DNA of 63,957 nucleotides, filler included, from Elsinoe ampelina (GCA_010093995.1; 5 parts of 4 records of this genome joined end to end with filler, not necessarily neighbours in it); one strand, 5' to 3'. Shown: positions 10,655-38,700, counted from the first letter of the whole stretch. A program made the numbers and translations. Notes: generated from the letters alone by a model not told the origin.

Positions 10655-10754
10655 NNNNNNNNNNNNNNNNNNNNNNNNNNNNNNNNNNNNNNNNNNNNTT
10701 AATTAATTAANNNNNNNNNNNNNNNNNNNNNNNNNNNNNNNNNNNNNNNNNNNN
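10655..10754. other. Artificial contig linker (44N-TTAATTAATTAA-44N)
   Basis: The same 100-bp construct recurs at 41195-41294, 48383-48482 and 60384-60483. The 12-mer places stops in all six frames. Confidence 0.97.
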
Positions 10755-11493: not shown

Positions 11494-11956
11494 TGTCACG
11501 AACCGTCTAAACATAGCCTACGCTAGTAGTCTAAGCTAAGCTAAGAACGAGGTAGTTCTACTTCTATAGTAGTATAGCACTAAGGTAAGAGTTAGAGAAG
11601 GTATGTCTTATAGATAATAAAGTATAATTAGATAGTATTATAAAGGCTAGCCTTAGCAATACTAGTGTTTACTATCTAGACAAGGTTAACTATAGTACTT
11701 ATATAAGGTAAGGACTACTCCTATATATATGTGTTCTTTACTGTGTACTTTATATGCTCTATATACTTCGTAGCGAGAGTCGGAGGTAACATAAAGTACA
11801 CGTCTACTAGTAACCTACGTGCTCTATAGTCCCTAGGGCAGAGCTACTAGAGAAGATAGAGAACTAGGTAAACGTCGGGCTAGGTCACGTAATAACCTTA
11901 GTAGTTTAATTAGTCCTAACGTCCTTACGCTTTAGCTGTCCTACTAGTTCGTAACA
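11494..11956 (-). repeat. 3' LTR of Gypsy B1 (463 bp)
   Basis: Inverted termini tgtcacgaac...gttcgtaaca. An adjacent polypyrimidine run (ttactctcctctctt) is the PPT on the minus strand. Homologous to 34673-35137. Confidence 0.9.
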
Positions 11957-12030
11957 TTACTCTCCTCTCTTAATCGAGTTGTTCTAATAAGTAAGTATCC
12001 TTCCTTGTCCTTACGCGCTATATACTAAAT

Positions 12031-12579
12031 ATGCCTCCTAGTTGTCGAAGGTATAGTAAATCTAGTATATCTACACGAAAGAATCTCTTAGAGTTTATTA
12101 AATTGTTTAGAACTAACATGCTATAAGCTTGCTCTTGTTGTAAGTTAAAAGGGCTAGACTATAAAGTCTACGTTCGGTTAGGTATTTATAGCTAGTATGT
12201 CGTAAGTAACTACTTAGGTTATAATATTCAGGTAACAAAATCGAAATAGTAGTGTCTCTAGTCTAAGTATATTCGTTTACGAAAGGAATTAGTTATAGCT
12301 AAGGCTACTAGAAAGAAAGCTAAAGAAGCTTATAAAAAGGCAAAAGAGGCTTGTTAAAGAGCTATAGGCAATAAGCTTCGCCTATATAAAGAGATATAAA
12401 AGTTAAAAAACAAGGCGGAGAAAGTAATCTCTCTAGAAGAGACTTATATTTAAGTCTTAGAGTAGGAGGAAATACTATTATCGGTAGATCCCGTCTTACT
12501 ATAGAACTAGTAATTATTTATGCCTAACTCTAATTAGAGTTCCTTACTTAGCAACGATTAAGGTACTTCTATTAGTTAA
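12031..12579 (+). pseudogene. Antisense accessory ORF of Gypsy B1: Zn2Cys6-spaced cysteine cluster plus coiled coil (RIP'd)
   Basis: ATG at 12031 (MPPSCRR...). Reads C-S-C-C-KLKGLD-Y-KVYVRLGI-Y-S*-Y-VVSNYLG-Y, where the TAT/TAC codons are RIP products of TGT/TGC. A K/E/A-rich helix follows. The 3' end is approximate. Confidence 0.7.
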
Positions 12580-15500: not shown

Positions 15501-17680
15501 TTATGCTCTCTACGTTCTATAATTACACTTAGGGAATTCGAGTGTTTCTTTAATCTAGTCTACGTCTAGATTATGTTATTAAAGCTAGTCTATACTAAGT
15601 ACTATATTATACTATATATTAACTATATCGATTAATTGTTTTTCTATATGTGTTTCGATTTTAATTATAACGTTTCGTAGTTCTTAAGTAACTTTCCTAT
15701 TCTTCCCTATAGAGGTTCTATCCGCTATAGTAAGTAGGTAAGGTAACTCCTTCTAGTGTTAATAAGGCTTAAGCTAATTAGCAACTGTTATAGAGACGTA
15801 GCTATAGTTAGCTCCTAAATCTATTATTGCTCTTACCTTACTCTCTTATATTTCGACTTCTAGTATAAAGTAGTTTAACGTATAGATCTTTATTATATTA
15901 AGGCTTTAGCTAGTATTATTATCTTGCCTTATTAGGTAACAACTAGCTAGTTTTTTGTTATTGTAGCTTCTTAGATAAGTAGCTAATCCCTTTCTATATA
16001 TATCTACTATTAGTACTATATCTATTAGGTAAGTTGTGTTTTGTCGCTATTTAATATAGTAAGGTAAACTTCTAGCGCCTAAGTTCCTTAGTGACTATAA
16101 AGTCCAATAATTCTCTACTAGTTACACTAAGTAGTGTTATACACCTATATTAGTATAACTATTCCTTCCGGGTGTAGCTAGGTATTAGCATTAAAGACGA
16201 AAACAGGTTATATAGATTTGTCTTGTCGTGTCCTATTCTAGTAGTAGGTGTATATTATTATATAATTCCTCTATATCCCTATAAGGTATGCTTTAAGTTG
16301 TCCGCCTAGTAGTAGTACATCGTTGTCGTTATTATTGTTAGATAAGTCCTTATCTATATTATTATATTATAGTTATTCGGTGTATTCTTCGTTGTATTTC
16401 TCTTCGTTGCTACTGCCCCTAGTATAGTTATAGTTAGTAAGGCTATACTAAGTATATTCTCTTACTTAGCTATAGGGGATAGTACTACCTATTTCGATTA
16501 CCGAGAAGTCTATAGTGTATTTAAGACTAATAGCATCTTCTCTAAGTACATCGTGTAAGTAGATAGTATAGTACTATTCGTAATCTAGATTTATACATTT
16601 CTAGAGCGATATATAATATACCTTTCCTTATAGTGCGCCGTAAGGGCTAAAGGTAAGGCTACTATATTATTATATAGCACTTACGTCCTAATACTTCGTC
16701 TCGATAATCGTATATTAGTAATTATTACTAACTACCTTCTATAGTTAGTTACTGTTACTACTAATTATAGAAAGCCCTTCTAGGTCGGGTTCCTAGTCTA
16801 GCTATTTCGTTAGTTGCCTACGCTTAGATAGCTTATATAGGAACTAACTAGATCCCTGCTTATCTAATAAGTGAATATAATAAGAGTTATTATAATATGC
16901 TATCTATAATAGTGTTACGTGTTAGCTTTGTTATTTACGGTCGGTTATAGAGATATTAAGTGTAACATCTAGAGAGAATTCTACTACCTCTCGAGTTATT
17001 ATAGACTCCTTCTATATTTCCTTACCTACGCTAAAGGTCGTTAGGTCTTCTATAGTAGTGTTAGCCTTTTTCTCTACTAGCCTAGTAACTATTATATATA
17101 ATCTATCGGCTAGCGCCTCTTATTAGTAGTCTCTAGCTCGATGCCTAGGTCTTTTACACTTAAAACATAGGTTGTCTTATCTATACTTCTCTCTCTCTTT
17201 TCTACTAAGGAACTTTCTTCTATAGCTATAGCCTTATACCTATAAGGGGTAGCCTTCGCGTATAGTATTAAGTTCTATAGAGTCTCTATAGTTTCGGAAG
17301 AAACGCGTATATCTAGTGTTTACCTTATATCCTCTACGACGTTCTATATGTTATTTGTAAAGTCTATTATTAATAGCAATTGTAGTGTCTACTAGTTTCT
17401 AAAGGCTGTTAGGCGGCTCGAGTATTATTTAGTCTTTAACTAAGTCGCTTAGTCCTTAATAGAATACTAAGTGTTTAGTACTATTGTCCTAGTCTAGATA
17501 TATTACGAGTTATTAGAACTAGGAATAGTACTAGGCTATAGACCTATATTATTATAGTTATTAGATCTTCGTTATAGTAACGCATTCCTTATTAGATATA
17601 TTAAAGACTTACTTAATCTTTGCCTAGAAGATGCTAAAGCTCTTAAAGATAGCCTTTATATCTAGGCCTAGTTATCTATC

Positions 17681-18360
17681 NNNNNNNNNNNNNNNNNNNN
17701 NNNNNNNNNNNNNNNNNNNNNNNNNNNNNNNNNNNNNNNNNNNNNNNNNNNNNNNNNNNNNNNNNNNNNNNNNNNNNNNNNNNNNNNNNNNNNNNNNNNN
17801 NNNNNNNNNNNNNNNNNNNNNNNNNNNNNNNNNNNNNNNNNNNNNNNNNNNNNNNNNNNNNNNNNNNNNNNNNNNNNNNNNNNNNNNNNNNNNNNNNNNN
17901 NNNNNNNNNNNNNNNNNNNNNNNNNNNNNNNNNNNNNNNNNNNNNNNNNNNNNNNNNNNNNNNNNNNNNNNNNNNNNNNNNNNNNNNNNNNNNNNNNNNN
18001 NNNNNNNNNNNNNNNNNNNNNNNNNNNNNNNNNNNNNNNNNNNNNNNNNNNNNNNNNNNNNNNNNNNNNNNNNNNNNNNNNNNNNNNNNNNNNNNNNNNN
18101 NNNNNNNNNNNNNNNNNNNNNNNNNNNNNNNNNNNNNNNNNNNNNNNNNNNNNNNNNNNNNNNNNNNNNNNNNNNNNNNNNNNNNNNNNNNNNNNNNNNN
18201 NNNNNNNNNNNNNNNNNNNNNNNNNNNNNNNNNNNNNNNNNNNNNNNNNNNNNNNNNNNNNNNNNNNNNNNNNNNNNNNNNNNNNNNNNNNNNNNNNNNN
18301 NNNNNNNNNNNNNNNNNNNNNNNNNNNNNNNNNNNNNNNNNNNNNNNNNNNNNNNNNNNN
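17681..18360. other. Sequencing gap (680 N)
   Basis: Run of N. Confidence 0.99.
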
Positions 18361-19040
18361 TTAAGTCTATTAATCCTCGTATATACTAACTATAACCTAA
18401 CTTAGTTTAGTAGTAGTTAAAGTCACGACGAGGTTGCTATCTATATTAGGTATTTACGCTAGCTATACTTCTATTATAGAAGTCGCTATAGAGCGATTTA
18501 GTACTTCGCTCCTATACGTAAACTAAGTAGTACCTTAATGCGCTATAATAGAGCGTTTAGCCTTAATTAGACACTCTTCTTAATCTATTAGTATTAAACT
18601 TAAGAAGCTAATAGGAGAATCGAGCTTACCTCTTAAAAGGTGCTTAGTAGAAGCATTTCGTACCGGTGCTATATAATAGCTATTACCCCCGCTATTAGGC
18701 CCGTTATTATATACCTAACTTCTCTATAAGTTAGTTTAAAGTTAGGTAGGCCGAACTAAAACGAGAAGGTATATACGTACCTTTCCCTCGTATCCTCTCT
18801 ATCTAATAGTCCCTCTATAGTATTAGCGTAAAGAGATATATTTAACACTACTACTATAACGGTAAGTCTATTCCTCTCGACGTACTTAGTAAAGCTAAGT
18901 TTTAGCTAATAAAGAATAAGAACCTATCTTAGGCTAATCTACGCTAGGAAGTTATTCTAAATACTTAGTCAAATATAATTAAGTTCTAAAGGTTCTATGC
19001 GTTTAAATACTAGCGTTCCCTTAGGTAAGTAGGACTTAAC
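18361..19040 (+). pseudogene. RIP'd intron-containing gene remnant, unknown product
   Basis: A short GTAAGT...TTTTAG intron-like segment lies at ~18862-18905 in coding-like sequence. No recognisable domain. Boundaries approximate. Confidence 0.35.
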
Positions 19041-19209
19041 TCTATTTACTCGCTTAACTAAGAGTATATAAATCGTTACTAGAAGGGAGAAAATAAGAAA
19101 GAGTATTAGTTTGTTAAAGTAATAGCAAGTGCTAGCTATTATAGCTAAGCCTACACGTCTAACAAAGGCTACTTAGAAGGCTTTATATATTAAAGGACTC
19201 CTAAAGCGT

Positions 19210-19975
19210 TTACGCTACTATATATAAGTAATTAATTAATAAGTACATCTAGCGCGTACTAAATCGCCGTCCTTGCATTAGTACTTTCTTTCCTCTAGTA
19301 GCCTACGTACCTAATTCGGTAGCTCGCTATTCTCTAGCCCCTTAGCTAGCTATTCGTAGTAGAGTATCTTACTTACTATTCGTATAATGTTATTATAACT
19401 ATAGCAGAGCGCCTCTCGGAGCTATATATATGTTAATAAGTAATTAGCTTTAGCTACGTAACTTACCTTACTAGCTATAACTATAAAAGGATATTCGCCT
19501 ATAGTCCTCTATAGATAAAGTACTAGTAGCTAGTTACGGACTAAGCGCTAGTACTGTATAATTCGTAGGAGTAGCTATTAATTGTCTAATATTAGTAATA
19601 TCGTATTATAATCTACTCTAATAGCTATACTTATACGTAGATTATTACGCACCGCCTTAAAAATGTCGAGATACTAGTTTAGTATATTCTATTGCCTCTG
19701 CTTTACTATCTTAACTAGCGTAGAGACTAACGTTAGGCTATTCTCGTCGGGTTATAGCTCCCTTAAACTCGGATTAAGAGTAGTAATATCTAATTTATGT
19801 CTTCTTTTTTGTCTTTAATGTTATATTTATAGCCTACATAGTTAGCTTAGTCTCCCTTAATGCTAAAGCCTTACTCTGCTTTATTCTAGTTAAAATAACC
19901 TAAATTGTTATCTTCGAAATACTTATTAGTCTTATAGTCCGAGCTATATAGGCGCCGACGTGCCTAAGACATCTT
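19210..19975 (-). pseudogene. RIP'd intron-containing gene remnant, unknown helical protein
   Basis: The frame reads DITTLNPSLREL*PDENSLTLVSTLVKIVKQRQ*NILN*YLDIFKAVRNNLR...PFIVIASK, then a 45-bp GTAAGT..AG intron (19422-19466), then LREALCYSY...GLENSELPN*VRRLLEERKY. Stops are only TAG/TAA. Confidence 0.5.
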
Positions 19976-20849
19976 AGTTTATAATAGTTCTAATAAAGAG
20001 ATATATAGGTATAAGAGAGTTAGTAAGGTAGGCCGGAATAATACATGCTATAAGGGGGATAGATAGTTATCTTATATGCGTTATAGTGACTTAGTGTTAG
20101 TTCAAGTTAGATAATAGCTTAGTTAGGTGTTTAAAGTGTACAACTTTCTTCTAATTAGAATTAGTTATATCCGCCTATACCCTAAGGTAATCTTAACTAG
20201 TAAGAGTATTAAATTAGACTTATAGCTAGGTCTAACTTACGGAGTGCTAATCGCTAGAAGCTAAACTAAAAAAGAAAGCTACTTAAACTTACTCGGACTA
20301 AATACTCGAACTAAATATAGTATTTGTTGTTAGGTTAAGCAACAATTAGAGTAGAAATATGTAGAGAGAAATTGTAGATTAAACTTAGACTAAGTAATTA
20401 TATACTAATTCGAAAGACTATAGGAACTAGCTATTATATATGTAGATAGGTAGTATAATTTATATAGTAGCTCCCTTATTAATTACGTTAGTAGTCCCCT
20501 CTTTACTAAGTAGTATATCTTTTAAGTGCTAAAAGCATTAATTACTTACTATCTCGCTGTCTAGGGTGTCTAAATAAGATACGCTAGATAAAGCGACTTA
20601 TCTTCTACTAATTATGTCGCAATAGGGGGCAGGTGTCGATTAGCTATTAGTAACTATATATAGTAATAGTAGAGTAGCACTATTAGTGTAGCGTCGTGTA
20701 CCCTTGTTTAATCCGAATAAGCCCCTTAATACTCTACTAGTAAGGTCTATAGAGGCAACGCTAAACACGTAAAAAGCTTTACTAATATACTCCCTAAGTA
20801 TATTATTCTCTCGCTAGAGTTATCTAATTAAGCTTACGTTCTTCTCCGC

Positions 20850-22125
20850 TATTAATTATAATTAGCCTACTTCCTGCTAAACAAGTATAATGTCTTCCTC
20901 TAGGAGTTGCTATCTATTAAGCTATTTAGGCTACTAGGTCCTACGTCGCTTTTACTAGCTACTAACGTAATTATACTCTTCTCTATACATATATAGTAGA
21001 GAGCTTCTAATTTAAGCCTCTAGCTAGTTAGGGAGACTATTAGAAGACTATGCTTTTAACACCTAAATAGATAAGAGAAGCTTATATGCTTAATTCTACA
21101 GTCTAGATATTAGCCGCTAGAGAAATAAGGTCGGTGTAATTAATATCTATACTTAGGAGCCTAGCCGAAAGATACTAATAGACCCGACAGATTAATAGTA
21201 GAAGAATAGATAAGTGATTCTAAAGAGCGATTTAGTTAAAAGGCAAGGAAGGATAAAGCGTAGTAAACGAACTAAAACTCTAGGGTTTAGTAGTAGGTAC
21301 GGCTTAGCGTAGATTACCCTACTACTTTTTAGTTCGACTTAGTCTACTACTAGACTATTCTCCTTTATGCTTACTTTGGCCTAATACTTTCCTTGATCTC
21401 GTTGCCTTATTAGGATATAAAGAGGTAAACTATGTAATATCTTAGACAAGATAACGGCCTTAAACTAGATAGTATTCTCTATTATAGCGAAATGCAGCGT
21501 TCTATTGTCCTTCTAACCTATAACATCGCTTTGCTTGTTATATATATAGTAGTCCGTTATAATTGATATTACCCTTAGCTAATCGAACTTAATATCTATA
21601 TCCTTCTTAGATATAGTAGTTATAGCTTTATAACGTATAAGTAGAAGATCTCTAATTAAGTAGATAGGACATATCTCTCTATTCTTATAAACTACTAATA
21701 GCATATCGTCTAGTCGATTAGAGAGTAAAGGCGCTTATAATTATAATTAGCAATCCGAGGATTTATTCGAGGTAAGCGTATTAGCACTATTCTACACTCC
21801 TCTAGGCTTATATAATCTTAAGTGTAACTATACCTACTAACGTCTAAAATTAGTACTTATCTTATAGATAAGAGTATAGAAGGCAGCTTAACTGTCGCTA
21901 CTCTCTAAGAGCTCTATTATACGCCGAAATATACACCGAATGTTATTACTATCTAGTGCTACTAGAAGTACCTCCTTCTCTAACCTTCTCCTATTAGAAA
22001 TCGACCTAAATGTTCTTCTAACTATGCCTTTACCTATTATAATATCCTCTAAGAGACTATATAAGTCTCTATAGCCTTTATTGTCGAGGGTAAGGGCTTG
22101 CTTAATAGCTTTAATTAAGCATATT
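20850..22125 (-). pseudogene. RIP'd gene remnant, unknown product
   Basis: About 250 codons are readable by eye in one frame (LIKAIKQALTPRQ...LEKEVLLVALDSNNIRCIFRRIIELLESS...DIDIKFD*LRVISIITDYYIYNKQSDVIG*KDNRTLHFAIIENTI*FKAVIL). A pyrimidine-rich leader lies on the minus strand at ~22160-22200. Confidence 0.45.
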
Positions 22126-22396
22126 ACTAGTTAATAAGAAGCAAATATAGGTATAGCTATAGAGGAGAGAAGAGAGAGGAGAGAGAGAGTAGAGGTAGAA
22201 GGGTAGCAGTATAGGTAGCAATTCGGTGCAAGTGTTACTTGTAATAGATAAGCCTTAGATCTTAGTTTACTTATAAGAGAGGCATACTAGAATTGTGCTT
22301 AGTTATAATTAGTTAGCCTAAACTAACACTCGTAGAACTACAAAGTTTAACGCGCTAAACTTTATCTCCTCTTAGTTTTATTATATGCTTATTACG

Positions 22397-23195
22397 TAGC
22401 GATATAACTATATTATAAATACGATTTGTAATAACGCCTTAGTTCGCGCTCTCTACTTACACTAACCTAAACATAGGCGTTAGCGTCCCTAGTATAACCT
22501 TTTCTCTCCTCTCTATCTAACCTTAATAATAGCTAGCTATCTATTATAGTAGATTCCCCGCCTAGTACACTATAATTATCTATTGCTATATATACAATAG
22601 CAACTCTAATATTTACTCCCGCCTCGCTATCGCTGCTACTTCTAATAGTATTCTCTACACCGGCTGTGTCGTATTTATAGAATTAACTACCGCTAGTACC
22701 TAGTAGTTACGCTAGAGTAAATCTATTATAGTATACCTCTCTATCTTGCCTACTACGCCGCTATAGGCTTAAGAGTGCATAAGGAGACTCCGACACCTCT
22801 TTCTCTCTCCTCGCTACTACTACTCTCTATAGCTTCCTTTACACTAGCTATATATTATTAGTAGGATTAGCTACTATCTCTACCTAGTAGCTATAACTAA
22901 GCGAATCTATTACAGAGTATCTCTCGATCTTATAGATAGCGCTACTAGGAGTTCTAGCGTACGCGAAGAGGGTAGAGAAGCTAGTATCTACTAGGAATTA
23001 CCTACCTTATAGTATAAGAATATTAAGGAGAGAATTACGGAGGAACAACTAGTATAACAAAGAGGAAGAGATAGAGACATATCGTAGGCAAAGATACATC
23101 TGCTACCTCCTGCTAGATAGTAGCTTACTATAGAGAGCGTTATAGACGGAGCTATATTAGTAGTATTTTCTTTTATAATTGCTTTTATAGCGGAG
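22397..23195. repeat. ~800-bp direct repeat, copy 1
   Basis: Colinear with 29659-30457 at a constant offset of 7262 bp. The differences are almost all transitions. Confidence 0.9.
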
Positions 23196-23949
23196 TTTCG
23201 TTATTAGTAGCGCTTTATTATAACTTCCTTACGTTAGCAATATACTTCTTTCTACGTAGATTGTATATCTATCGCTTTAATCTCCCTTCTCTAACTAGTG
23301 AACAAAATCTCCTTATCTAATATATATAAGTATACTATATATCTTTCTTTATTTCTTATTATTTATCTTGTCTCCTGTCTACTATAAAGATATTAAGGTT
23401 GTTACTTTACACGATAATGCTCTTTATTCAATAGTTTACTAGCTATTTGAAGCATATATAACTTTGTATATAGTACTAACATGTAAGTGTTTAGTATAGT
23501 TAATTACTTTAACACTAATTTTCTACGATAATTAGCACTTATAATATCCTCCGATAGCTGTGTTTTGTTTGCTTACCTAATTTATACTCTATAATATTTG
23601 TTAGTAGTAAACTAACTTATTTACTTTTAGTTCTAGTATCGACCTAATATTAGTAATTGTTACGTGTTACTATTAGTACATACAAAACATAGACTTAATT
23701 AACTTAGTTTACTTTTAGGTTAAGGCCCGAACTAGATCTTAGTTATAAGTATACTACTTACTTCGGTATACTATCTTAAATACAAATTTTATTATATTTA
23801 AGAAGTTACTATCTACTTTCCGTATAGTATTTTAATATTATACTAGGTAGTAGATATTTATAATTACTACCGTTTACTCTATAGCGCTTAACTTACTACG
23901 CTTAGTTCTTAGCTATATAATCTTAACCCCTCTAACCTTACCTATCTTA

Positions 23950-25290
23950 TATAACGCCTTTACTAGTAGACATTCTTACACTTATTAAATACACATAATA
24001 GCACTATACTACTAAAGACGAAGAAGCTAAAGGTCGCTACTAAACCTATAGAAAAGATTCTACTTAATAACCTTACGCTAGCTCTTGTTAAGAATATGCT
24101 TCGCAATAATAATGTTAGTAAGAAATCTATCTAATTCTTCTTTAATTAGGACGACTAGTAATACTCTACTACGTTTATAAGGATAAAGGAAATAATCTTA
24201 AAAGTCTTTATAGAATCTAATATTAAAATTAAGAAACAAGATAGAAGCGAGTTACGTAATTCTAAGGTGCTTAAAGCACGCCTTAAAATTGAAACTAGGC
24301 TACTAAATAGCACGCCTAACAATTTCTAGCTCTTTGTCGACCGACTAGATCGGAAAGATCTAGACTAGTTTAAGGAGAACTTATAGACTATAGTTAATAT
24401 TAACAAGATAAAAGCTATATAGCGATTATTCCGAAATACTATATAATTAATAAGGGCAAATCTCCTATTAGTTAAAAGGGAAAGAATAACGTTACTAGGC
24501 GAAGAAGGCACCTAGAGTCTATATTCTTTAACTACCTCGTCTGTATAGATACTAACGCTCTCCTAAGTAAGAATACTATCCTTAGAGAGACATATAACTC
24601 GTATAAAGACAGGTAATAAGAGATTAAATTTGTATATATAGCCTCGTTATAGAATGTTTAGCTTTAACTAGGGGCTAGCGTCTAATTGTGTCTAGATTAA
24701 CATTAAATTCGCTACGATCTAGATTATAGAGGTTATCGAAGTAGACACTATCTCGTATCTAACATTAAGAAAGAACATTCGCGTCTACGACTTAATAAAG
24801 CCTAGTACTAGTAAGGACAAGAATTGTTACGTTAATTACTACATTAGTAAGCTTAGATAGATCCTTAACATTAGAGGTAATTACCTCTAACTCTACTAGC
24901 TTAATATATATAACTCCGTATAAGTCTTCGCTATTAAAGACTCTTTCGATCTAGACACTACTATTACTAAGTATATTATAACTCTTATCCCCGGTGCCTA
25001 CGAGATCTTTCTCTATCTTACTCCTTCTATAGTATCTATTAAAGATCTTCTCGACTTTATATAAAGTAAGTTTACCTCTTCCCTATTTATCTATATATAC
25101 TAACACTTATAGATAACTCTTATTAATATTGTAGTAGCTAGCAACTACTTCCTATAGCCGAGGCTACTATAGAAGAGAACTTAGAAGTGTTTCTTACTCC
25201 TAAGAAGCTTTGCTTTATAGACATTAACACTAACAAGAAGCGTAAAGGAAATTAGTAGAAAGAGGATATTATAATATAGAACGTTTAATA
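23950..25290 (+). pseudogene. RIP'd gene paralogous to the N-terminal part of the SNF2 pseudogene
   Basis: Shares blocks with 31357-32500: FFN*DD (~24138 vs ~31483) and IFLYLTPS vs IFVYLTPS. A 47-bp phase-1 intron (25066-25112) is followed by NSY*YCSS*QL. The start is approximate. Confidence 0.65.
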
Positions 25291-27099
25291 CCCGCGATAG
25301 TGACTAAACTACTAAAGGCAAGAGCGGCGATGCTACTATGTTTTATTTACTATTATATTATTCATAAAACTATTTAGTTCTTAACTAATAAAGTTTTATT
25401 TAGCTCGTTCTACCCCTAAGAGGCTATAGCCCCTATAAATCCTACAATTTCTATTATTATTATTAGAAGTAAACTTGCTTAATAGTTCTACGACTATAGC
25501 TAGACAGATTCTAACTAACCTAGTAACTTAGTTCGGAGTATAGTCTTACTTTATATAGTTTTAGAAGAATATAGCTCCTTCTCCTCCGCTAGAAGAACAT
25601 AGCCTGTTTAGACTATAGTATATACTACCGAGGCGCTATCTATGTTTCTACTACTTTAATAGCTTAAAGGATATTATATAAGCTACTATACACCTAAGGC
25701 CGGCTATTTATCTAGATAAATATAATCTCTCGGAGCTCTCTAATACCTCTCCTAAGTTCTACTTTGTTACTAGTGACTTTCTATAGCCTACCTAGCACGC
25801 TATAACGTATTAGAGTAAAGAGAGCAAGTTCGAGAAGATAACAACTTACTTCTACTAATATAAGATTGACATTAGCATTAAAAAAGTAATATATTCTTAA
25901 TATTATTAATAATAGAAACGAAGTAATGCTACTATAGATACAATAGACTAGAGCGTTTAATAATAAGTAAAATAAGTTAGCGGGATAGAATCTTGTCCCC
26001 TATTATAGTAGAAGCAATAGTACAAGTTTTAGTTCTATGCCGAACTTAGAGTTAACTAAATTAAATAAGAATAGTATAGTGCTATAAAGGAGCGCGTAGG
26101 CGTTACTACTAATATAGTTATTAGGCTTTACTCTCGTATACTAGCGAGGTTTATACGTAGCATGCTTAGAAGTTAATAAAGAATTCCTGCCGACTATTAT
26201 TAGTTCTAGCTACTACCTCCTAACAAATAGCAGTAACGCTTTAGGTTAGGTTACGCCTCCTAACTAAGTACAAACTTAAGTTAGTTTAGTTAGCCTAAAA
26301 CTAGGGACGAACTTATTTTATATTAGGGTAGATAAGTTCTTTAAGGGAATACTATAACGCCTAGCTGTCTTATGCCTCTCCTTGTTAGGTAATTACTACC
26401 CGGCATTAGTATAGCTTTACTAACTATATACGTAGGTTTAGTATTAAGCTTAATATTTAATATAAGGTCGATTACACTAAGAGAAAGAGATTAGATACCT
26501 ACTACTTAACGAAGGCAGCTTCGATATAGTAGAGCTAGTCTCTATCTATAGGCGGCAAAGACATACCTATTACAAAGAATAAGAGAGAATAAACTAGATA
26601 CGATTTAACTTAATATTGCTATATAATATAATAAGAGGCAGCTCTCTGCCTATACGAAGGTAATATAAGAATAGTTAAAGCCTATTATAGCCCCCTTTTC
26701 GTAAATATAATAGTCACTTCTTGTTTCTAGTTCGAAATCTTTATATTAGTCCCTATATAGATAGCTAGACTTCTATTTATTCCTCTTAACATGTATCTTA
26801 ACCTAATTATAAAACATCTAGTAGCTACGCCTACTTTTATGTCTTATTAGGTTCGAGATATTCCTAACTAGAACTTTAAAGTTTTAATCGAGGATAGATA
26901 TCTTATTTCTTTAGTAGCACCGTATATATAAATCGCTTTATATATAGGGGAGTATACCTTAACTATAATTATAGAGACGCTATATAGGAGAGAGTAGCAC
27001 GGGATAATATCTATATTTAATAAGCAAAAGGAACCTAGAGGTAATTATACCAGATATTGTCGTAAGCTTACTTTATTTACTCTACTGTCCTGCTAGTAT

Positions 27100-29150
27100 A
27101 AGAAGAGTAATAACATCGACCGACATTATAGTAGGGGCTATAGACACTCCTTAGACTTTGTACCCCGAGCCGAAGTAGTAGATAAGTATATAGCTAGCAC
27201 TACGCTAGATTAGAAATATAAGGCCTTTATATTATTATCCCTAAGATTATAGAATAGAAAGCCTATAGTTAGAAGACTAAGAGGTAGTAAGGGATTATTT
27301 GTGCGTATAACTCTATAGCGCTAGCGGTAGCTATAGTAGTTAGTTCGACTTAGTTAGTCTAGTTTAGTTGTTACTAATAAGAGAGCTATATCTACGATAA
27401 CTTAAGAGAATCCCGAATAGCTAAGCTATTAGGATTAGCAAGAGCAATAAAGTCGTTATTGTCAATTGTAGAGAGAAGTCTATAGTAAGCTACGTAGGCA
27501 TTATTAGAGTAGCTATATCGAAGTAAACTTACTTCGAGAAAGCTACGCTAGTTAGTTCGTAACTAGGAATAGTATATAGTCCTATAACAAGTAGAGTACT
27601 AGTGCTTCTACCTTAATAGTATAACTTTGCTTAACACGAAGTTAGTATATAGATCTAATTATTATAGTAGGCTTCTAATAGTGCCTTAGAGAATATAACA
27701 TTCGCTAGCGTAGATGTAATAATAGCGTTTATGCTTAAGCTAACTATACTATCCTATTAGCTAAAGAAGTAGGTTAACTATAGCTATAATACACCGACGA
27801 TAATATAGAAGGTTATATAAGACAATATAGCAAAGCGGACAAACTAAAAGCGTAGTTGTTTAAACTAATAGAGGAGTAATAGTAAATTATTAGTTTATCC
27901 TTGTTAAGATTAGTTAAGGGAACGCCTGCAATTTTTACCTAAAAAGCGCTAGTTTTAGTTTAGTAAACTAATCGACTTTCCCTAATAGATTAACTATAGG
28001 CATAAACGACCTAACGTTATATAGCCGAGGCATCTTCGTATACTGCTATTACTATTTTTTTGTAGAGGCTATTTATAACTAACTTATTATAATACTAGTA
28101 ACAAGTTAAGACACGAGATAGTAAGAGCTATAAATCGTTTACTAGCTAAAATTATTATGCCTACGTAGCACTCTCTGTTTTATAATTACTATAAAAGCCT
28201 CTACTAAGGACAATAGCGTAACAATAGCTAATTAAGTATAGTATTTAACATTGTCCTTAAGTAAGGAATAGCTAACAAACTCTATCGCCTAGATATATTA
28301 GAGTAAACTCTATCTTAATATGTCTAGTACTATAGCGTAGATACAATTTTAGCTTTAGTCCGCTAACGCTATATAATAGCTTAGTCCTATTAGCTCTACT
28401 ACGAATTATAGTAAATAAGAACTAAACTAAGTAACGAGGTAGAAATAATAGCCTATAGCTAGCGTAGAGTGTCCTTCCCCCTTTGCCTACTATATAGTAT
28501 AGCATAGCGGATAATCCTCTTAGTCTCTTTACTAACCTTAACTCTCGACCTCTAGTATATAGAACAGATAGTAATAGTAATAGTAGGCTCGATAGCGACG
28601 TACACGAGGAAGAGAAGGGCATAGACAAAGTTATAATAGAAGACATATATAAGGAAGAGTAAGTAATTACAGTAAGTATAACTAGTAGTACGTCTATAGA
28701 GTAAAGTACTAGGAGGTTGTCCTTATCTAGTAGAGCTATATCTAATTATACTACGTTCGAGATAGTAACTAGTATACTAGCTAGCAGCGAGGAGTTAGTA
28801 ATAGACATAGTTTATCCTTAGTTTACGTTAACTAATCTTATCTAGATCTCTCTAAGTCTATAACATATCCTTTGCCCCGAGCGATTAATAAGATATAGCT
28901 TAGCTAGGGACCCTCGGCTCGGCGCTCTAATATTTAATAAAAGGTAAGCTACTAACTTAGATAGATAATTTTAATTTAAGTTAGGTCGTTATAGTAGAAG
29001 CGCCTTCTAGTAGGATATACTCGCTAGCCTCTATATAATATTCTAACAAATCTACTTCTACCTATGTAAGGGTACTAAAGATATATCTAAGTTATATATG
29101 CGAAGGCTATAGTAGTCTAACTAACAGTAAAATAGTGTTTACTAGTAGGA
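27100..29150 (+). pseudogene. RIP'd long gene remnant, unknown product
   Basis: Extended coding-like frames (YTDDNIEGYIRQYSKADKLKA*LFKLIEE...), an acidic stretch at ~28570-28660 and an intron-like GTAAGC..CTAAC..TTAG at ~28943-28984. Boundaries approximate. Confidence 0.4.
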
Positions 29151-29231
29151 AGCTTACTTAGCTTAAATTTAGTAGTGTAAATTGTCGCTTTACTCTATCT
29201 CTAGCATGTTATATATAGCGGTAGTAGAGAG

Positions 29232-29531
29232 TAGCTAGCAGGGGACAGCTAGTAGTTTATTATGTCGAACTAATAATTTCTTAGTTCTCTCTCTCGAAGT
29301 TTAAAGATGACCTAAAATTTCGACCTAACTATAGCTAGCAGGGGATAGCTAGTAGTTTATCGCGTCGAACTAATAATTTCTTAGTTCTCTCTCTTGAAGT
29401 TTAAAGATAACCTAAAATTTCAACCTAACTACGGCTAGTAGGGGATAGCTAGTAGTTTATTACATCGAACTAACAATTTCTTAGTCCTCTCTCTCGAAGT
29501 TTAAGGATGACCTAAAATTTCGACCTAACTA
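29232..29531. repeat. Tandem repeat, 3 x 100 bp
   Basis: The unit tagctagcaggggacagctagtagtttat...cctaaaatttcgacctaacta starts at 29232, 29332 and 29432. Copies differ by transitions. Confidence 0.92.
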
Positions 29532-29658
29532 GATTAAGCACTCCTCGGAACTTAATTATATAATGCTATTTAATTATGTTCTTCTCTAAAGTTAAGTATT
29601 GTATATTTAGAGACTTATAATCTTTATAGCATTATAAACGCGTTATAAACCCTGTTTA

Positions 29659-30457
29659 TAGCGACACAACTATATTATAGATACGATTTACTATAACACC
29701 TTAGTTCGCGCCCTCTACTTATACCGACCTAAACGTAGGCGTTAGCGTCTCTAGTATAACCTTTTCTCTCTTCTTTATCTAATCTCGATAATAGCTAGCT
29801 ATCTATTATAGTAGATCCCTCGCCTAGTATACTATAATTATCTATTACTATATATACGATAGCGACTCTAATATTTACTCCTACCTCGCTGTCGCTACTA
29901 CTTCTAATAGTATCCTCTACACCGGCTATATTATATTTATAGAATTAACTACTACTAGTATCTAGTAGTTACGCCGGAGTAAATCTATTGTAGTATACCT
30001 CTCTATCTTGCCTACTACGCCGCTATAGGCTTAAGGGTGTATAAGGAGACTCTAATATCTCTTTCTCTCTCCCCGCTACTACTACCCTCTATAGCTTCCT
30101 TTACACTAGCTACGTATTATTAGTAGGACTAGCTACTGTCTCTATCTAGTAGCTACGACTAAGCAAATCTATTGCGGAGCATCTCCTAATCTTATAGATA
30201 GCGCTACTAGAGGTTCTAGCGTACGTAAAGAGAGTAGAGAAGCTAGCGTCCACCGGGGATTACCTACCTTATAGTATAAGAATGTTAAGGGGAGAATTAT
30301 AGAGGAATAACTAGTATAATAAAGAGAAAGAGATAGAGGAATATCGCGGGCAAAGATACGTCTACTACCTCCTACTAGATAGTAGCTTACTATAGAGAGC
30401 GTTATAGGCGGAGCTATACTAGTAGTGTCCTCTCTCGCTATTGCCTTTCTAGTAGAG
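29659..30457. repeat. ~800-bp direct repeat, copy 2
   Basis: Colinear with 22397-23195. Confidence 0.9.
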
Positions 30458-31356
30458 CTAGGCGAGGAATAAAGCGCATTTATAATTATATAGAATGTAC
30501 TATTAACTACCCGTTCCGTAGAATGTATAGCCTTTACTCTACTCTACTACTTAATTCCGCATATAGCAATTATAAAGTCTAGATAATTAGATAGTAGTAT
30601 ATTACTTTCTTTATTCCTTTACTAGTATCTATAAGCTATACTATACGCTATATATACTATGCCCTTTATTCCGCTATAGGCTACTAACTACCTTCTATTT
30701 ATGTTCTATTACTATTATCCTTTATATACGAATACTAGTTTCGCTATTAAAATATTATTTAATTATTTTACGTTAACTACTACTATATTCCCTCTATTTA
30801 TTAGACTATTATCCCTTAAGATCTACCCTAAACACGACAATAGTATCCTTAGTATATATAGCATATAAAATAAAAGGTAACTAAGTACACAGACTATAGT
30901 TACTCTTAGTTTAGTATCTAAACTAAGTAATCTACTATTACATGTACACTGTATCTAGTATACTACTACGTGCTTAGTTTAGGGCCCAACCTAAGTCGAC
31001 TAAATTTAGGTTACTCCTCTCCTTAATTGCTTTAGTTTACCTTTATTTATACTCTCTTATATATAAACAAATAACTTATATAGCTCTCTAGTATTTCTTT
31101 AACCTCTTTAACCTCTCTTTTAAGCGCTCTTTACTTAAATATCTCCTCTTTAGTTAAGTCTTAGTTAGGTATATATTATAAAGTACATAGACTCGCTACG
31201 TTAATAAATTCTTTTCTTAATTCTTCTAAACTTATAAATACGTAACACCTTTATAGAATCTCTTCTTCAATATCTACTATACCTACTTAACCTATTTACT
31301 AGATATTATTCTAAGCTTTATTTATAGCATATACTAAGCTTATAGACGTATGTAAT

Positions 31357-34300
31357 ATGTCTAAGAATTAGCCTAATAGCGCTAGTATAGCTACTAATAA
31401 CATTCTACTCTATAAAAGACCTCCTATAGAAATTTAAGTATAGCTTAATAAAAACCTTAAGATTAAGGGATTCTTCCTTAAATTTTTTAACTAGGACGAC
31501 GACTAGTACGCTACTACACGTATAAGAGCGTAGGAAGAATATAAGAATGCCTACATAGTTCTAGAACTTAAATATAAGGAACCTTAGGACAGCAACGTTA
31601 ATATAACTACGATTATAGACAACATCGAAACTTTCCTACGATACTCTTAGAATAACTATACAAAGATCTTCTTTTAAAGACTATACTATTAAGACTAAGA
31701 CTAGTTTAAGAGGAACGTTAGAAACTATAATAATATATCTAGTTATAATGTTATTAAAGATTTTGTCCTTACTATTAAGGCGTAAGAGCTTAGGAATAAG
31801 AAGAATTAGACTAAAGTAGACAAGAAGGCTTATCCTAAGAAGCATATTAGAAAGCACCCCTCCGCTACCTAGTCTAATAGTAGACTCTCCGAAAGATTAG
31901 AGACTTCTATACTTAGTAGCAGACTCGTAGGTATAGATATTAATTACTACACTAGTTAGCCTATACATTAGTAGTAAATGCTAGAGGACATGTCTTATCT
32001 AGTCTAGAGTATTATCGATAAAACTATTATTAACTTTATAATTATTAAGTAATTAGACATTAGCCTAGGTATAATTATAAAGAGAGAATATTTGCGTCGT
32101 CTATAGGCGTTTAGTCTAAGAATTTTAAGGTTATATCTAGGGAATTATAATTCGAACGTATATAGCCTTAATAACATTAAGCTATTCCTAAAGGAGAAGA
32201 AGTTAGTTAGTAATAACATTATCCTTATATAGATAGATTATATAGAGCTATATAACATCCTACCTATCTTAGATAACTATAACTTACGTGCTGCTATAAT
32301 TAACTATATTAACTCCCTAGTCGAAGGTAGTAATATAATCTTCGTCTATCTTACGCCTAGCACGGATCTAGTTAAGAAGCTCTCTAAAGAAGTACTTTAT
32401 AAGTTTAACACTTAGTTCGACTTAGGTGTATACTAATATACTTAGTTAACTCTCTTTAGTATTGTAATAGTTAGAAGCTATCGACTCTAGTCTAGGAGGA
32501 AGAGGAAGAAGAACCTCTAGCCCCTTTATCTCCGGCTAAGTGCCTACTACTATATAAACCTACCCCTAAGAAGCAACCTAGCCCTCTACTACCTAACGAG
32601 GATAATACTACTATTGACTATTGTTCTACTCGGGTAATAGAAGACAAATACTATAAGCAATACCGAGACAGCAATTAGTATCTCTTTATAATTATACCTA
32701 GTAAGAAGCAAGTAAGGTACTATATTCCGTTAGTCCCTAAGACACTATCTATATCTATTCTAGCGCTTATAACTTGCATATTTAATAAGACTCTTAGTAG
32801 CTCGGACTTTGTTAAACTTTATACTATAAACGATAATAAGAACAAGCAAACTAGTAATAATCTAGCTAACTAAAGCTTTATCCCTATAGGCACTAGAATT
32901 GATTACTAGTCCGAAGAGTTCTAGGAGAGAGTCTATAACTTTATAGGCTTTAAGAAAGACATCTACTTACCGAACGCTAGTATATAGTGTTTTAGTTAGA
33001 ATAAGAAGTATCTAGTCGAGGCAGTATAGATATACTTAGCGCTTGTTATACTTAAGAAATACCTTAAAGGCTACCTAGTATTTATATTTACATATAAGAT
33101 AGAATTTAAGAAGACTTCGATAGGACTCTTCTTTCTCTTACTAATTCGGAACTTAAATAAAAAGGTTATCTAGGATGCTAACTATGCTACTATACCTAAG
33201 GACAAATAGAGTAAGTACTAGAAGGCAAAGATACTAGTTAACGAGCTATAGCTAGATATTGCTTCTATAGATACTATTAGCTATAATCTAATTATTAGCG
33301 GATTAAATGTAATAAAATAGTAAGCGTAGAAGATATAGAAGTTTATACCTAATACAAAGGTCGTTCTATACTAGGGGAGAATATTCTAAGCTATATAAGA
33401 AGACAAGTATAGTGACATATATAATATAGACACTTTAATTCGCAAAGAGGATCTACCTATAGGCTACTGCTAATAGGAGTCTTAGCTAATAGATAAGTCT
33501 AGCGAGCCTATCGACACTATTATAGTCTTATAACTAGTCGATATACATAAGTAACACCCCTAGACCTTATAGATAAATAATTAGTTCTTCTTTACTACTT
33601 GTAACACTATAATCTACTACTTCCTTAGTAAGAATAACATAAATACTAAGGATTAGGACTTTGTTCCTAAGGGACAAGAGAGAAAGCCGGAGTCTACGCC
33701 TATAAACTAGGCTACTATTATCTTTAATAAGTTCTATTAGGTTACTAGCTAGAAGACATAGATCTAGTTTTATCTAGGAATACTACTAGGGAGGCCTTTT
33801 ATACTAGGTATAAGCGGGACGCTATTTGTTAAGTGCTTAAACATAGTAGCGTTCTTAATAGCGGCTATATATAAGGACTTTAGATTAGAAAAGCTTAATA
33901 TAAATAGAAGTAGAATAGAAGAATTTAACGAGAACTATATCTATAAATCTAGGTAGGAGCTAACTAAGGCTAAGAATAATAAATGTTAAGTAATACCGAA
34001 GATAACACTAGATAAGACTTAATAAGCTATCGCTAATAAGCTTAACTTCTAAATGGCATTAGACTATACCTTCGTAATTGACAAATAGTATAAGGCGAAT
34101 AACAACTCTAGTAAGTTTAACAAAAAGAAGAGTACGTAGTTTACGGAAGAGATTATAGTAATAGTTAGCAAATAGAGCACTATCCTTACGAATATTCTTA
34201 TTAAGATAAACGTAAACTATATCTAGAAACCTTTCGATACTACTCCCGGTCTACTAGCTATTAGAGTTCTACTATATTCTACCTTTAACCTAGAGATCGC

Positions 34301-34672
34301 TATTAAGGATAAGTATCTTTATAGTCTTATAAATATATAGAAGAAGATCGAACGGGATATAGATAAGAGTATATAAGAGACAATCGACAGGTAAAAGGAC
34401 AAATCTAATAAGCCTAAAGTGACATTAGAGACGATTCTTAATAAGAAGACTAAGGAGTAAATACTAAGCCTAGTTACGCCGCTACTACTTTTCTCTATAT
34501 TTCTCGCTCTTATAGATATATTCTAGAACGATCCTATAGTCGTAGAAGAGTTTAGCAACTTTACTATTAAGTTTACCTACGAAATTATATATAACTCCTC
34601 GGAGATAGCGCTATAGTAGTATATAGACAAGATTTACGCTAGTCCTTAGATAAAGGTCCTTTATAGTGTTAT
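31357..34672 (+). pseudogene. RIP'd SNF2-family (SF2) helicase gene, truncated by Gypsy B2 insertion
   Basis: One frame contains motif I FIFTYKIEFKKT (de-RIP FxFAHEMGFGKT, 33081-33116), motif II IFNKFY (de-RIP IFDEFH, 33720-33737) and motif III LGISGTL (de-RIP LGMSGTP, 33804-33824). These match SNF2 ADEMGLGKT / DEAH / LTGTP. A 47-bp intron lies at 32399-32445 with a RIP'd donor. Confidence 0.75.
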
Positions 34673-35137
34673 TGTTACGAACTGTCTAAACATAGCCTAT
34701 ATTAGTAGTCTAAGCTAAGCTAAGAACGAGGTAGTTCTACTTCTATAGTAGTATAGTACTAAGGTAAGAGTTAGAGAAGGTATGTCTTATAGATAATAAA
34801 GTACAATTAGATAGTATTATAAAGGCTAGCCTTAGTAATACTAGTGTTCGCTATCTAGACGAGGTTAACTATAGTACTTACATAAGGTAAGGACTATTCC
34901 TATATACATGTGTTCTTTACTATATACTCTATATGCTCTATATACTCCGTAGTAGCGCTACTAGAAAAGATAGAGTATACGTCTACTAGTAATTCTATAC
35001 GCTCTATAGTTTCTAGGGTAGAGCTACTAGAGAAGATAGAGAACTAAGTAATTGTCGAGCTAGGTTATATAATAACCTTAGTAGTTTAATTAGTCCTAAT
35101 ATCTCTACGCTCTAGCTTATCCTACTAGTTTGTAATA
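34673..35137 (-). repeat. 3' LTR of Gypsy B2 (465 bp)
   Basis: Termini tgttacgaac...gtttgtaata, PPT complement adjacent, homologous to 11494-11956. Confidence 0.9.
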
Positions 35138-35211
35138 TTACTCTTCTCCTTTAATCGAGTTGTCTTAACGAGTAAGTATTCTTCTCTATCTTTACGCGCT
35201 ATGTACTAAAC

Positions 35212-35760
35212 ATGCCTCCTAGTTGTTAAAGATATAGTAAATCTAGTATATCTACACGAAAGAATCTCTTAAAGTTTATTAAACTATTTAGAACTAATAT
35301 GCTATAGGCTTATTCTTGTTGTAAATCGAAGAGGCTAGACTACAAGGTCTATGTTCGGTCGGGTATCTATAGCTAGTATATTATAAGTAACTACTCGGGT
35401 TATAATATTTAAGTAACAAAATCGGAATAGTAACGTCTTTAGTCTAAGTATATTCGTTTACGAAAGGAATTAGTTATAGCTAAGGCTACTAGAAAGAAAG
35501 CTAAAGAAGCTTATAAAAAGGTAAAAGAGGCTTATTAAAGAGCTATAGGTAATAAGCTTTACCTACGCGAAGTAATATAGAAACTAGAGAATAAGGCGGA
35601 GAAAGTAATTTCCCTAGAGGAAACTCGTATTTAAGTTCTAGAGTAAGAGGAAATACTATCGTTAGTAAATCCTGTCCTACTATAGGATTAGTAATTATTT
35701 ATGCCTAACTCCGATTAGAGTTCCTTATTTAGCAACGATTAGGGTGCTTCTATTAGCTAA
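35212..35760 (+). pseudogene. Antisense Zn2Cys6-like/coiled-coil ORF of Gypsy B2 (RIP'd)
   Basis: ATG at 35212, colinear without indels with 12031-12579. Confidence 0.7.
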
Positions 35761-38700
35761 GTAGTCTTCCTTAGGCATTCTCGTTTTTGTTTAGTGTTAG
35801 TAGCGTCTAGCCTACCTAGTTAGTTTACTTAGGATAGGTTTTTAGTTTAGTAATCTAGGATTACTTACGAAGTAAGGTATTTCTCTAGTTCCTATATTAC
35901 CTTACTATACTAATGTCCTTTCTAGTAGATAAGATAGTAACGTTTTTCCCTTATGAATTTATAATGTAAAACCCTTTTAATCTTATATTATAGCTCCTAT
36001 GTTTCTTTATCTAGTTTAATAGGTCTAGGTACTACGTCCTATAGTACTTTCTCTAATAGTAATACATAAAAGACTAGGTAGATTCTTATATATCTAGGTA
36101 GTTCTAGTTTATATACGTTTTTGTTTTTCTTTTCTAGGATCTTAAAGAGTTCTAGTTTAGTGTAGTTAAGTTTCTTACTTAGTTGTTTCGTTTTAATGTT
36201 TTTACTAAGGAGATAAACCTTCTCTCTCTCCTATAGAATTAGTCCTATAATTCTCTTCTAGTTAGTAAATCCTACTATTCTTTGTAATATAAATGCTATA
36301 TCTTAGTATAGCTAGTTATATAACTTCTTAATGTTAGCTACTAGTCTATTTATATCCTTAGACATTAGCTTAATTCCGAGTATATCGTAGTATAGATTTA
36401 GGTATATTCTATAGTTTATATAGAATAGTAAAACTCTATTTGTTAACTTTCTATTATTAATACTAAGCTCTATAAGTAGTAATAGCGTTACCTATAAGTC
36501 TTACTTGTAGTTTAGGTAGTAGCGTAGGTACTACTCTAGTACTTAATTTGCCTATTTAGTTTGTCTATTCGTTTATAAGTAAAAGAAGGTTAATAGCTTA
36601 TATTTAACTCCTAGTAGGTCTATAAATAATTACTAGAATTATAACATAAATAGCTTATCCCTATTAGTTATTAGGTCTTATAGTACTCTATATTATAAAA
36701 CAATTATTTAGAGAAAGGCAAAGGCTATATCCTCGGTAGTTACTATTGTCTTATATAGTACAAAATAGTAATACTTTATAAACCTATCTACTAGGACTAG
36801 AATACTATTATACTTTACACCTATAAGGAGTTCTTCTAATAGTAGTAGAGGTTCTATAAAGTCTATCGTAACTAATTACTATAGTTTGTCCGGTAGTAGT
36901 AAGGGTTATAGTAGGCTATATAGTTTATATCGAGAGTGTTTAGACTTGTAGCATATATCGCATATAGTAATATACGTCTTAACATTGTTTCGGAGTCCTT
37001 TCTAGAGGTAGTTTTATGTGATAAGTTTAATAGTCTTATTAATCCCGCTATGTCCTATAGTTAAGTTATTATAGTATATTTAAATAACTTCTTTTTTCTG
37101 TTCTTACGTAAGCTCCTAGGTAAGGCTATATAACTACTCTACCTTCGGGTATTTATAGACTAAAGCGCCGTCCTACTACTTTAGCATAGAGGTCTCTATT
37201 ATTATTATGTTTTTTAAGTAATCCGGCCGGCGGCTAAGAGTGTCTACTCTACCGTTCTCTAATCCCTTAACATAGTAGATCTAGAAGTTATAGCTTATAA
37301 GTGTTTCTAACTATTAAACCTATTATCTATTAAGAACCTTAGTTATTGTCTAATATAGAAGGTTCTTATAGTCGGTATAGACTTATACGGGTAAGGTTGT
37401 CTCTTCTAGGTATACTCTCTATTCGTAGAACGCTTCTATAATTATAAGTAATTCCTTATTATATATGTCGTAGTTAAGTTTAGATCTAGTCATTTTTCGT
37501 AAGTAGTATACGATCGAGTAGTGTTATTCTTCTATATTCTTCTATACTAGACACGCTTCTATCGTAAAGTCTAAGGCATCTATTTCTAGTAGTACTTATT
37601 AGTCTAGGTTAAAGAGTGCTAGGACAGGTGCTATTATAAGTCTAAGCTTTAGCTCCTTAAAGGCCTACCTATATCTCTTATTAAAGATAAAGCTAGTTTC
37701 CTTTTTCGTAAGGTTAGATATTAGCGTAGCTACCTTAGAGAATCCTTTAACAAACTTATAGTAGTAGTTAAAGAACTCTAGTAGCGCTTAAACCTCCTTA
37801 ACTATTGTAGGTTCTAGCTAGTTATTTACTAACTTAATCTTCCTTAGATTAGGTCTAATACTATTAGTAGATATAACATAGTCTAGAAATTATATCTTGT
37901 ACTTATAGAACTTATACTTAGAGAGTTTTACTAGTAGGTCTTTCTCTTTTAGTTTTTATAGCACTTTATAAATATGTCTTACATGTTTGTTATACGTCTT
38001 TAAGAAAATAATAATATTATCTAAATATACTAAGATAAAGTTATTAAGGTATTCTTATAGAGTGTTATTAATTAACTCTTAAAAGGTTATAGAAGCATTA
38101 GTTAACTTAAAGAGTATAACGAGGTACTTATATAGACTCTATTATGTCCTAAAAGTCATTTTCTACTCCTTACTCTCCTTTATTTATACTTAATAATAGG
38201 CGTCTCTAATATTAATTATAGTAAACTATTTAGCTCTAAGTAGTTAGTCTTAAAGTTTATTAATCCTTAGTAGAGGATAGCGATTCTTCCTAGTAAGTAT
38301 ATTAAGTTTCTAGTAATTAATGTATATTTATAATATTCTATTCTTTTTTAGTGTAAAAAGCACTCCGTATGTAATAGGTAATTTTAATAGTTGTATAAAT
38401 CCTTTAAGTAAGTACTTATCGATGTAGTTCTTAAGGATATTCTTCTCTTGTTTCGATAGTAGTATAAGACCTTAATAGTATATCGGGAATTTACTCTCTT
38501 TAAAAGGTATTTTATAATTCTATAGTTTATATTAGAGTAAGGCTATAATGTCTTCTCTTTCTTTAAATAAGTTCTTAAAGTCTTTATATTCTAGCGGAAG
38601 TGCTTAATTACTTACGCTAGCGATAGCTCTAACTATTAGTTATACCTATACTATTCTTATAGTTAGTATCCGCGGAGCTAATTATGCTCTCTACGTCCTA

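Follow-up and report, generated by a model that had tools for sequence, protein, structure and literature searches.

A multi-copy, RIP-mutated block of at least 16 kb with a two-unit layout in DNA of Elsinoe ampelina

Relics of repeats that repeat-induced point mutation (RIP) has degraded make up a large share of fungal genomes of the AT-isochore type. Here, a RIP-mutated, multi-copy block at 18361-34671 (no strand assigned; no match in Pfam, Rfam or the PDB) in a stretch of 63 957 nucleotides from Elsinoe ampelina (GCA_010093995.1), referred to below as the window, was analysed and compared with the closest described systems. Like the block, the AT-isochore repeats of Leptosphaeria maculans (RLx_Ayoly and the 'uncharacterized repeats') are AT-rich, saturated in TpA, multi-copy and without an assignable superfamily, and in both cases Gypsy elements are nested with the repeats in the neighbourhood of a GC-rich gene island (PMC3105345). 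RLx_Ayoly is listed with 217-bp long terminal repeats (LTRs) and a length of 10.4 kb (PMC3105345), whereas the sole long direct repeat of the block measures 794 bp, its copies are spaced 7.26 kb apart, and the stretch that is repeated extends over at least 16.3 kb. All comparisons with L. maculans are meant as analogies only. The likeness to LTR retrotransposons and their non-autonomous, LARD-like derivatives lies in sharply bounded direct repeats that differ by RIP-type changes and enclose ~6.5 kb; the second 794-bp repeat is again followed by a related internal region, as in a tandem of the form LTR-internal-LTR-internal. In contrast to LTR retrotransposons, no gag, reverse transcriptase (RT), RNase H or integrase was detected in the block, although two neighbouring Gypsy families were; its termini and a target-site duplication (TSD) are not recognisable, and its internal regions are ~60% identical where its repeats are near-identical.

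Helicase-bearing repeats of subtelomeres include the Y' elements of yeast and the fungal telomere-linked RecQ helicase genes. The block resembles these in extending over at least 10 kb at many sites, in its tandem partial copies, in a long open-reading-frame-like stretch and in short tandem arrays, and differs from them in that no helicase domain or telomere repeat was found in it. Finally, the giant Starship elements (PMC9156397) share with the block a long extent without classical transposase or RT, the presence of more than one copy and a RIP-active genome of the Pezizomycotina type. In contrast to Starships, the block, both ends of which are hidden, showed no DUF3435 captain, terminal inverted repeat (TIR), TSD or identified cargo, and it occurs in tens of copies rather than a few (PMC9156397).

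An earlier note, made by reading the sequence alone, had proposed the block as a candidate relic of a giant cargo-carrying element that holds degraded cellular-type genes. Four N44-TTAATTAATTAA-N44 spacers (a six-frame stop linker) at 10655-10754, 41195-41294, 48383-48482 and 60384-60483 show the window to consist of separately assembled contigs strung together, and the block is contiguous only with 10755-41194; because the linkers separate contigs, adjacency across them, such as that of the block to the gene island, is no evidence of linkage. Composition identifies the window as fungal DNA of the isochore type. The AT-rich parts (1-49000 and 60000 to the end) have a GC content of 0.25-0.41, TpA/ApT of 1.65-2.54 and (CpA+TpG)/(ApC+GpT) of 0.05-0.37, and the gene island at 49-60 kb shows normal values (GC 0.50-0.61, TpA/ApT 0.41-0.78 and (CpA+TpG)/(ApC+GpT) 1.05-1.39). 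Every 1-kb bin of the block (18361-34672) carries the RIP signature, with TpA/ApT of 1.74-2.16 and (CpA+TpG)/(ApC+GpT) of 0.14-0.34. These indices equal those of the flanking retroelements; the TpA saturation reported for the block holds in all of its bins. The block is bounded on the left by a gap of 680 N (17681-18360) and on the right by a Gypsy element starting at 34672, and both of its ends are thus hidden, as had been claimed.

To see whether the block is multi-copy, contigs of two public runs from one sample (X1 and X2) were aligned to 18361-38360 at a likeness of at least 80%. Sampled words of 23200-33199 were present in the two runs at 59% and 47%, and 20490 (X1) and 14023 (X2) contigs were aligned. 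Every part of the block was covered by many diverged contigs, including its centre ~8 kb from either edge. The differing places in X1 comprised 375 A>G, 466 C>T, 394 G>A and 366 T>C changes and 45 transversions of all kinds; transitions therefore made up 1601 of 1646 places (about 97%). Among the positions listed, between two and 19 X1 contigs carried a letter unlike that of the window at 32 positions of the block, and between 19 and 53 did so at eight positions of the Gypsy element. The pile-up directly supports the proposal that the whole block was multi-copy, as opposed to unique DNA reached by RIP leakage.

Summed contig depth over the 24 block bins (those beginning before 34369) was 6.8k-16.8k in X1 (mean ~10.7k) and 9.0k-22.5k in X2, and that of six Gypsy-dominated bins was 53k-148k, 5-15 times the value of the block; individual contigs among those listed had a depth of 124-367. 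Summed depth is not copy number, and 'tens of copies' is to be read as a rough estimate from contigs; with this reading, the data suggest that the block is present as tens of diverged copies, some 5-15-fold below the Gypsy element. Depth is even over 16 kb (coefficient of variation ~0.18 in X1) and steps sharply at 34.4-34.7 kb, which suggests that the parts of the block travel together. Among the best-supported rows, the joints that fall within the block are small gaps or are due to the pair of 794-bp repeats, and the other copies look collinear with the window. One bin, 28366-29032, clearly stands out above the others in summed depth (16.8k against about 10k in X1, 22.5k against about 12.5k in X2). 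The stretch of the block that is poorest in stops, 28164-28970, falls in the same place, immediately upstream of the 100-bp array described below.

The block contains two head-to-tail units of ~7.3 kb, a structure that is new and goes beyond the earlier note. Unit 1 occupies 22397-29658, and unit 2 runs from 29659 onward and is cut at 34671. Each begins with a 794-bp repeat; after a further 0.75-0.8 kb or so come at least 3 kb in which the units are homologous and show coding-like periodicity. The direct repeat of ~800 bp that had been reported is the 794-bp pair formed by copy A at 22397-23190 (+ strand) and copy B at 29659-30452 (+ strand), which are 7262 bp apart and have sharp ends; the two share 696 identical positions and differ by 94 transitions and four transversions (87.7% identity), and in purine/pyrimidine (R/Y) letters they are identical over 782 bp. 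An offset-184 signal in the R/Y scan of copy A reveals an inner 184-bp duplication. The reported array of 3 x 100 bp was recovered by Tandem Repeats Finder at 29232-29531 (no strand assigned; period 100, 3.0 copies, 90% matches), just upstream of copy B.

The bodies of the two units are ~60% identical and represent old paralogues, whereas their 794-bp leaders differ by RIP-type changes. Using phmmer, 23934-25202 was found to be homologous to 31270-32535 (i-E 8e-14), and further collinear pieces pair 25115-25486 with 32448-32804 and 26725-26916 with 34140-34331. Together these delimit homologous stretch A of unit 1 (23934-26916, + strand; coding-like in several frames, with no family assigned) and homologous stretch B of unit 2 (31270-34331, + strand), the coding-like signal of which continues to the Gypsy junction at 34671. 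In the best DNA piece between the two stretches, 153 positions are identical, 54 differ by transitions and 47 by transversions. With 60% identity between them, the units fall below the 80% threshold of the contig alignment and cannot recruit each other's contigs; each has its own set of copies, and as depth is even, the whole arrangement of at least 16.3 kb appears to have been copied as one piece.

The left segment of the block, S0 (18361-22396, no strand assigned), has the same depth as the rest. It showed no detectable likeness to the remainder of the window: phmmer gave no match to unit 1 or unit 2 at E<=0.01 in six frames, and RIP-tolerant Smith-Waterman scores were at control level. No other direct or inverted repeats were found in the block in R/Y letters, and the scan for inverted repeats of at least 34 R/Y-identical bases involving the block returned only one self-overlapping palindrome at 26859-26896.

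Coding-like signal was assessed by three-base R/Y periodicity, stop codons and intron-like strings. The χ2 of the periodicity was 14-20 at 31201-32400 and 15-17 at 33601-34800. Stop counts at 31201-32400 differed strongly between frames (27 against 66-69). Stop-density maps show frame heterogeneity but tie one + frame with one - frame, so that the strand is not given by stops; the + strand of stretches A and B is suggested by the intron-like signal and by a slight excess of A over T. An R/Y dicodon coding model trained on the gene island was dropped, its power to discriminate being poor for the Gypsy control too.

Strings of the form GT[AG]NG[TC]..branch..[CT]AG occurred 28 times in the block, compared with 32.9 ± 6.2 in Markov simulations; at this chance rate the pattern alone proves nothing. 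Five short introns had been proposed and were submitted to a frame test. The 47-nt sequence at 32399-32445 (+ strand, stretch B; ATAAGT...ACTAAT...TAG) passed: the low-stop frame, with 10 stops per 200 codons on either side, changes from class 1 to class 0 as a 47-nt intron predicts. The sequence at 25066-25112 (+ strand, stretch A; GTAAGT...ACTAAC...TAG) was neutral in the test, but it is the position-matched and equally long (47 nt) partner of 32399-32445 in the homologous stretch, with the motifs in register. After this pair, likeness resumes at the first base in the predicted frames, weakly (54, against a null of 45.8 ± 5.7). One candidate intron shared by the two paralogous copies is therefore plausible. 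Of the remaining three proposals, 18862-18905 was neutral, and 19422-19466 and 28943-28984 failed.

For protein searches, the six frames of the block were read through with X at stops, giving 12 frame pieces. Pfam returned no families at E<=0.1 for the six read-through frames, in keeping with the absence of RT, integrase and transposase motifs stated in the earlier note, and none either for the ten frame pieces poorest in stops at a threshold of E<=10. A search of the PDB with two of the 12 pieces (P0007 and P0012) gave no match, and a profile of the two paralogous read-throughs produced only two chance-level rows in the PDB (E 0.14-0.15). No match was obtained when 32448-34671 (+ strand) was searched with HMMER against 1.84 billion proteins. 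The profile of the exon-1 pair was likewise empty in a word-indexed protein search (near-length and longer proteins); this search was also empty for the Copia-like control at 7797-10652, and either the tool is uninformative on RIP-mutated sequence or the Copia reading is wrong. A cmscan of the block against Rfam 15 gave no matches at E<=1, and thus no SSU, 5.8S or LSU rRNA, and phmmer showed no likeness of the block to the rest of the window, the pol regions of both Gypsy elements included.

The sensitivity of these searches can be judged from the Gypsy controls, in which 4-6 Pfam domains each were found in the pol frame, plus gag in one. Sensitivity was partial: RVT_1 was detected at 1.5e-10 in one Gypsy element and not in the other, and the integrase core in neither. 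Since the controls were partly missed, a domain of modest score could be overlooked in the block and the negatives are soft; a domain as strong and long as SNF2, if present, would probably not have escaped detection. The SNF2 helicase that had been read in the block was not supported by Pfam, by the two PDB searches or by the search of 1.84 billion proteins with 32448-34671 (+ strand). Specifically, neither the SNF2-related ATPase nor Helicase_C was matched by Pfam at 32448-34671 (+ strand) or in any frame, with the limited sensitivity just described. The helicase-motif-like strings of this region are presumably not RIP products of canonical SNF2 motifs; a lysine stands at the Walker-A threonine or serine position, and we take it that C-to-T or G-to-A changes cannot yield lysine there. 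RIP-aware Smith-Waterman alignment (matrix with 0.39 bit per position) scored at shuffle level against E. coli RapA (z = -0.18). The best score against E. coli RecQ, 58.9 (z 3.3), was obtained outside the candidate stretch, with a portion of the protein other than the helicase. The control RarD, a non-related membrane protein, reached z 6.8, which indicates that composition dominates and that this alignment has little power. The block carries no recognisable cellular genes; of the six or seven degraded cellular-type genes placed on both strands by the earlier note, none can be upheld, as no protein family is assignable to any stretch.

In the reading to which we give about even chances, the block is what RIP has left of a long, unclassified repeat family that probably goes back to a transposable element and carried LTR-like or leader repeats. 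Under this reading, the repeat family would have reached tens of copies in the fungus and then been inactivated by RIP, with the whole arrangement of at least 16.3 kb presumably copied in a single piece. Its units may once have encoded a large + strand protein with at least one short intron, and the near-identity of the 794-bp copies would reflect a recent common origin, as LTR-like terminal repeats, as a shared leader or through gene conversion. The 794-bp repeat starts with TA, possibly a RIP-mutated TG.

Several results count against this relic reading. No RT, integrase, transposase or tyrosine recombinase was found by Pfam in the six frames of the block, and in the absence of a transposition protein the term 'transposable element' is drawn from copy number and structure. 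The 794-bp repeats do not end clearly in CA or TA, their flanks do not match, and near-identical leaders joined to 60%-identical bodies are unlike a simple tandem of one LTR element. Transversions between the units are spread evenly over the three codon phases (114, 101 and 96) and the frame pairs of the units score alike (229, 229, 220 and 200), which gives no sign of divergence under protein-level selection and leaves the strand unsettled. The even depth could in principle also be a coincidence of several families.

In an unlikely alternative, the block is a patchwork of fragments from several unrelated, old, RIP-degraded transposons that happen to be similar in abundance. AT-rich isochores are usually built of such mosaics. 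The left 4 kb (S0) are unlike both units, the block sits among nested Gypsy copies, and the Copia-like sequence at 7797-10652 gave no Pfam match, so that known families could hide in the block in the same way. A patchwork is harder to reconcile with a depth that stays level across 24 bins and rises 5-15-fold once the Gypsy junction is reached, as the abundances of unrelated families usually differ far more than do the bins of the block; nor does it agree with the collinearity of the other copies with the window among the best-supported joints.

Somewhat less probable is a subtelomere-type block that spread among chromosome ends by recombination rather than transposition; its diverged copies of a large gene, for instance a telomere-linked helicase, would lie in tandem and would all be RIP-mutated. 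The size of at least 16 kb, the tens of copies, the diverged units in tandem with their long coding-like stretch and the short tandem array would all suit such an origin. In L. maculans, 935 kb of 'telomeric repeats' reportedly include a Penelope-like element and a RecQ telomere-linked helicase, according to a table footnote in the source (PMC3105345, Table 4 footnote). Some 65 copies of 16 kb would be of the same order as these 935 kb, the copy estimate being unproven and the comparison an analogy only. Neither a TTAGGG array nor a RIP-degenerate TTARRR array was found in the block, however, and Pfam scans of the block frames gave no DEAD, Helicase_C or RecQ match; the signal of the RecQ alignment does not fall in the candidate stretch and stays within what the RarD control reaches, and Gypsy copies flank the block on both sides.

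Two further explanations invoke giant elements. It is distinctly improbable, on our assessment, that a repeat of at least 16 kb with tandem ~7.3-kb modules, a shared 794-bp leader, an intron-bearing gene without known family and no recognisable transposition machinery, having reached tens of copies before it was silenced by RIP, represents an undescribed class of large fungal mobile element or a high-copy Starship-like one. Still more doubtful is the giant cargo-carrying element, Starship-like or undescribed, in which cellular cargo was RIP-mutated after duplication of the element. The part of that proposal that stands is the long multi-copy stretch without RT, integrase or transposase; in addition, both ends are hidden, so that a captain gene could lie outside, and there is one plausible spliceosomal intron. 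Beyond this, the Starship reading found no positive support. DUF3435 was not found in six frames of the block, in agreement with the statement that no captain is visible, although Pfam is weak on RIP-mutated DNA; it was also not found in 34673-41193 (three - frames), 41295-47362 (three + frames) or 7797-10654 (six frames). No cellular cargo gene was identified by Pfam, the PDB or the search of 1.84 billion proteins, and the R/Y scan gave no terminal inverted repeats, the ends of the block being missing. The described Starships measure 27-393 kb (PMC9156397). Tens of copies are untypical when set against the 0-4 per isolate given for Voyager, the most active Starship (PMC9156397). Tens of copies are not what a segmental duplication, offered as a further option in the earlier note, would readily explain. 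That RIP leaked from the flanking Gypsy copies into single-copy ordinary genes has next to no probability: RIP does spread a limited distance into neighbouring unique DNA, but distinct contigs with transition differences pile up on all parts of the block, including its centre ~8 kb from the edges, and no gene is recognisable in it, so that leakage into unique DNA is rejected.

If, as is most likely, the block is one more RIP-degraded repeat of an AT-rich isochore that escapes classification, it is ordinary, if unusually long. It would be of greater significance if the copies share the whole of at least 16 kb with defined ends; it would then be a large mobile or recombination-spread unit in tens of copies with no known mechanism. 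The reading of motifs on RIP-mutated DNA over-calls genes easily, as the 'SNF2' helicase and the introns illustrate, and contig pile-ups from public runs can settle a multi-copy question without an assembly.

The Ty3/Gypsy element that cuts or ends the block lies at 34672-41194 (- strand) and served as a positive control, with matches to RVT_1, RT_RNaseH(_2), Integrase_H2C2, SH3_Tf2-1 and gag. A second copy of this element at 11493-17680 (- strand; 88.5% identity over 6194 bp by blastn) runs into the gap to the left of the block. The Gypsy copies at 11493-17680 and 34672-40854 thus flank the block in the same orientation, and their first 284 bp are identical in R/Y letters and likely to be an LTR. 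A second Ty3/Gypsy family at 41295-47360 (+ strand) contains RNase H, an integrase zinc domain and SH3, with no RVT_1 detected by Pfam; it has reverse copies at 1-4637 and 4774-7679, a GC content of 0.37-0.41 and strong three-base periodicity. By eye, 7797-10652 (+ strand, first frame) reads as a Copia-type gag, protease and start of integrase, for which Pfam and the word-indexed search were empty.

The GC-rich island at 49534-60165 contains intact genes for a carnitine acyltransferase, a Rad51-like protein, Es2, a class IV aminotransferase and a DPBB/Barwin-like protein. Its composition borders to the RIP-mutated DNA are sharp on both sides, and both lie near contig linkers. Elsewhere in the heavily RIP-mutated DNA, 3032 bp are repeated at 100% identity around a gap of 10 N (1723-4754 and 4765-7796); this duplicate is most likely an assembly duplication and not biology.

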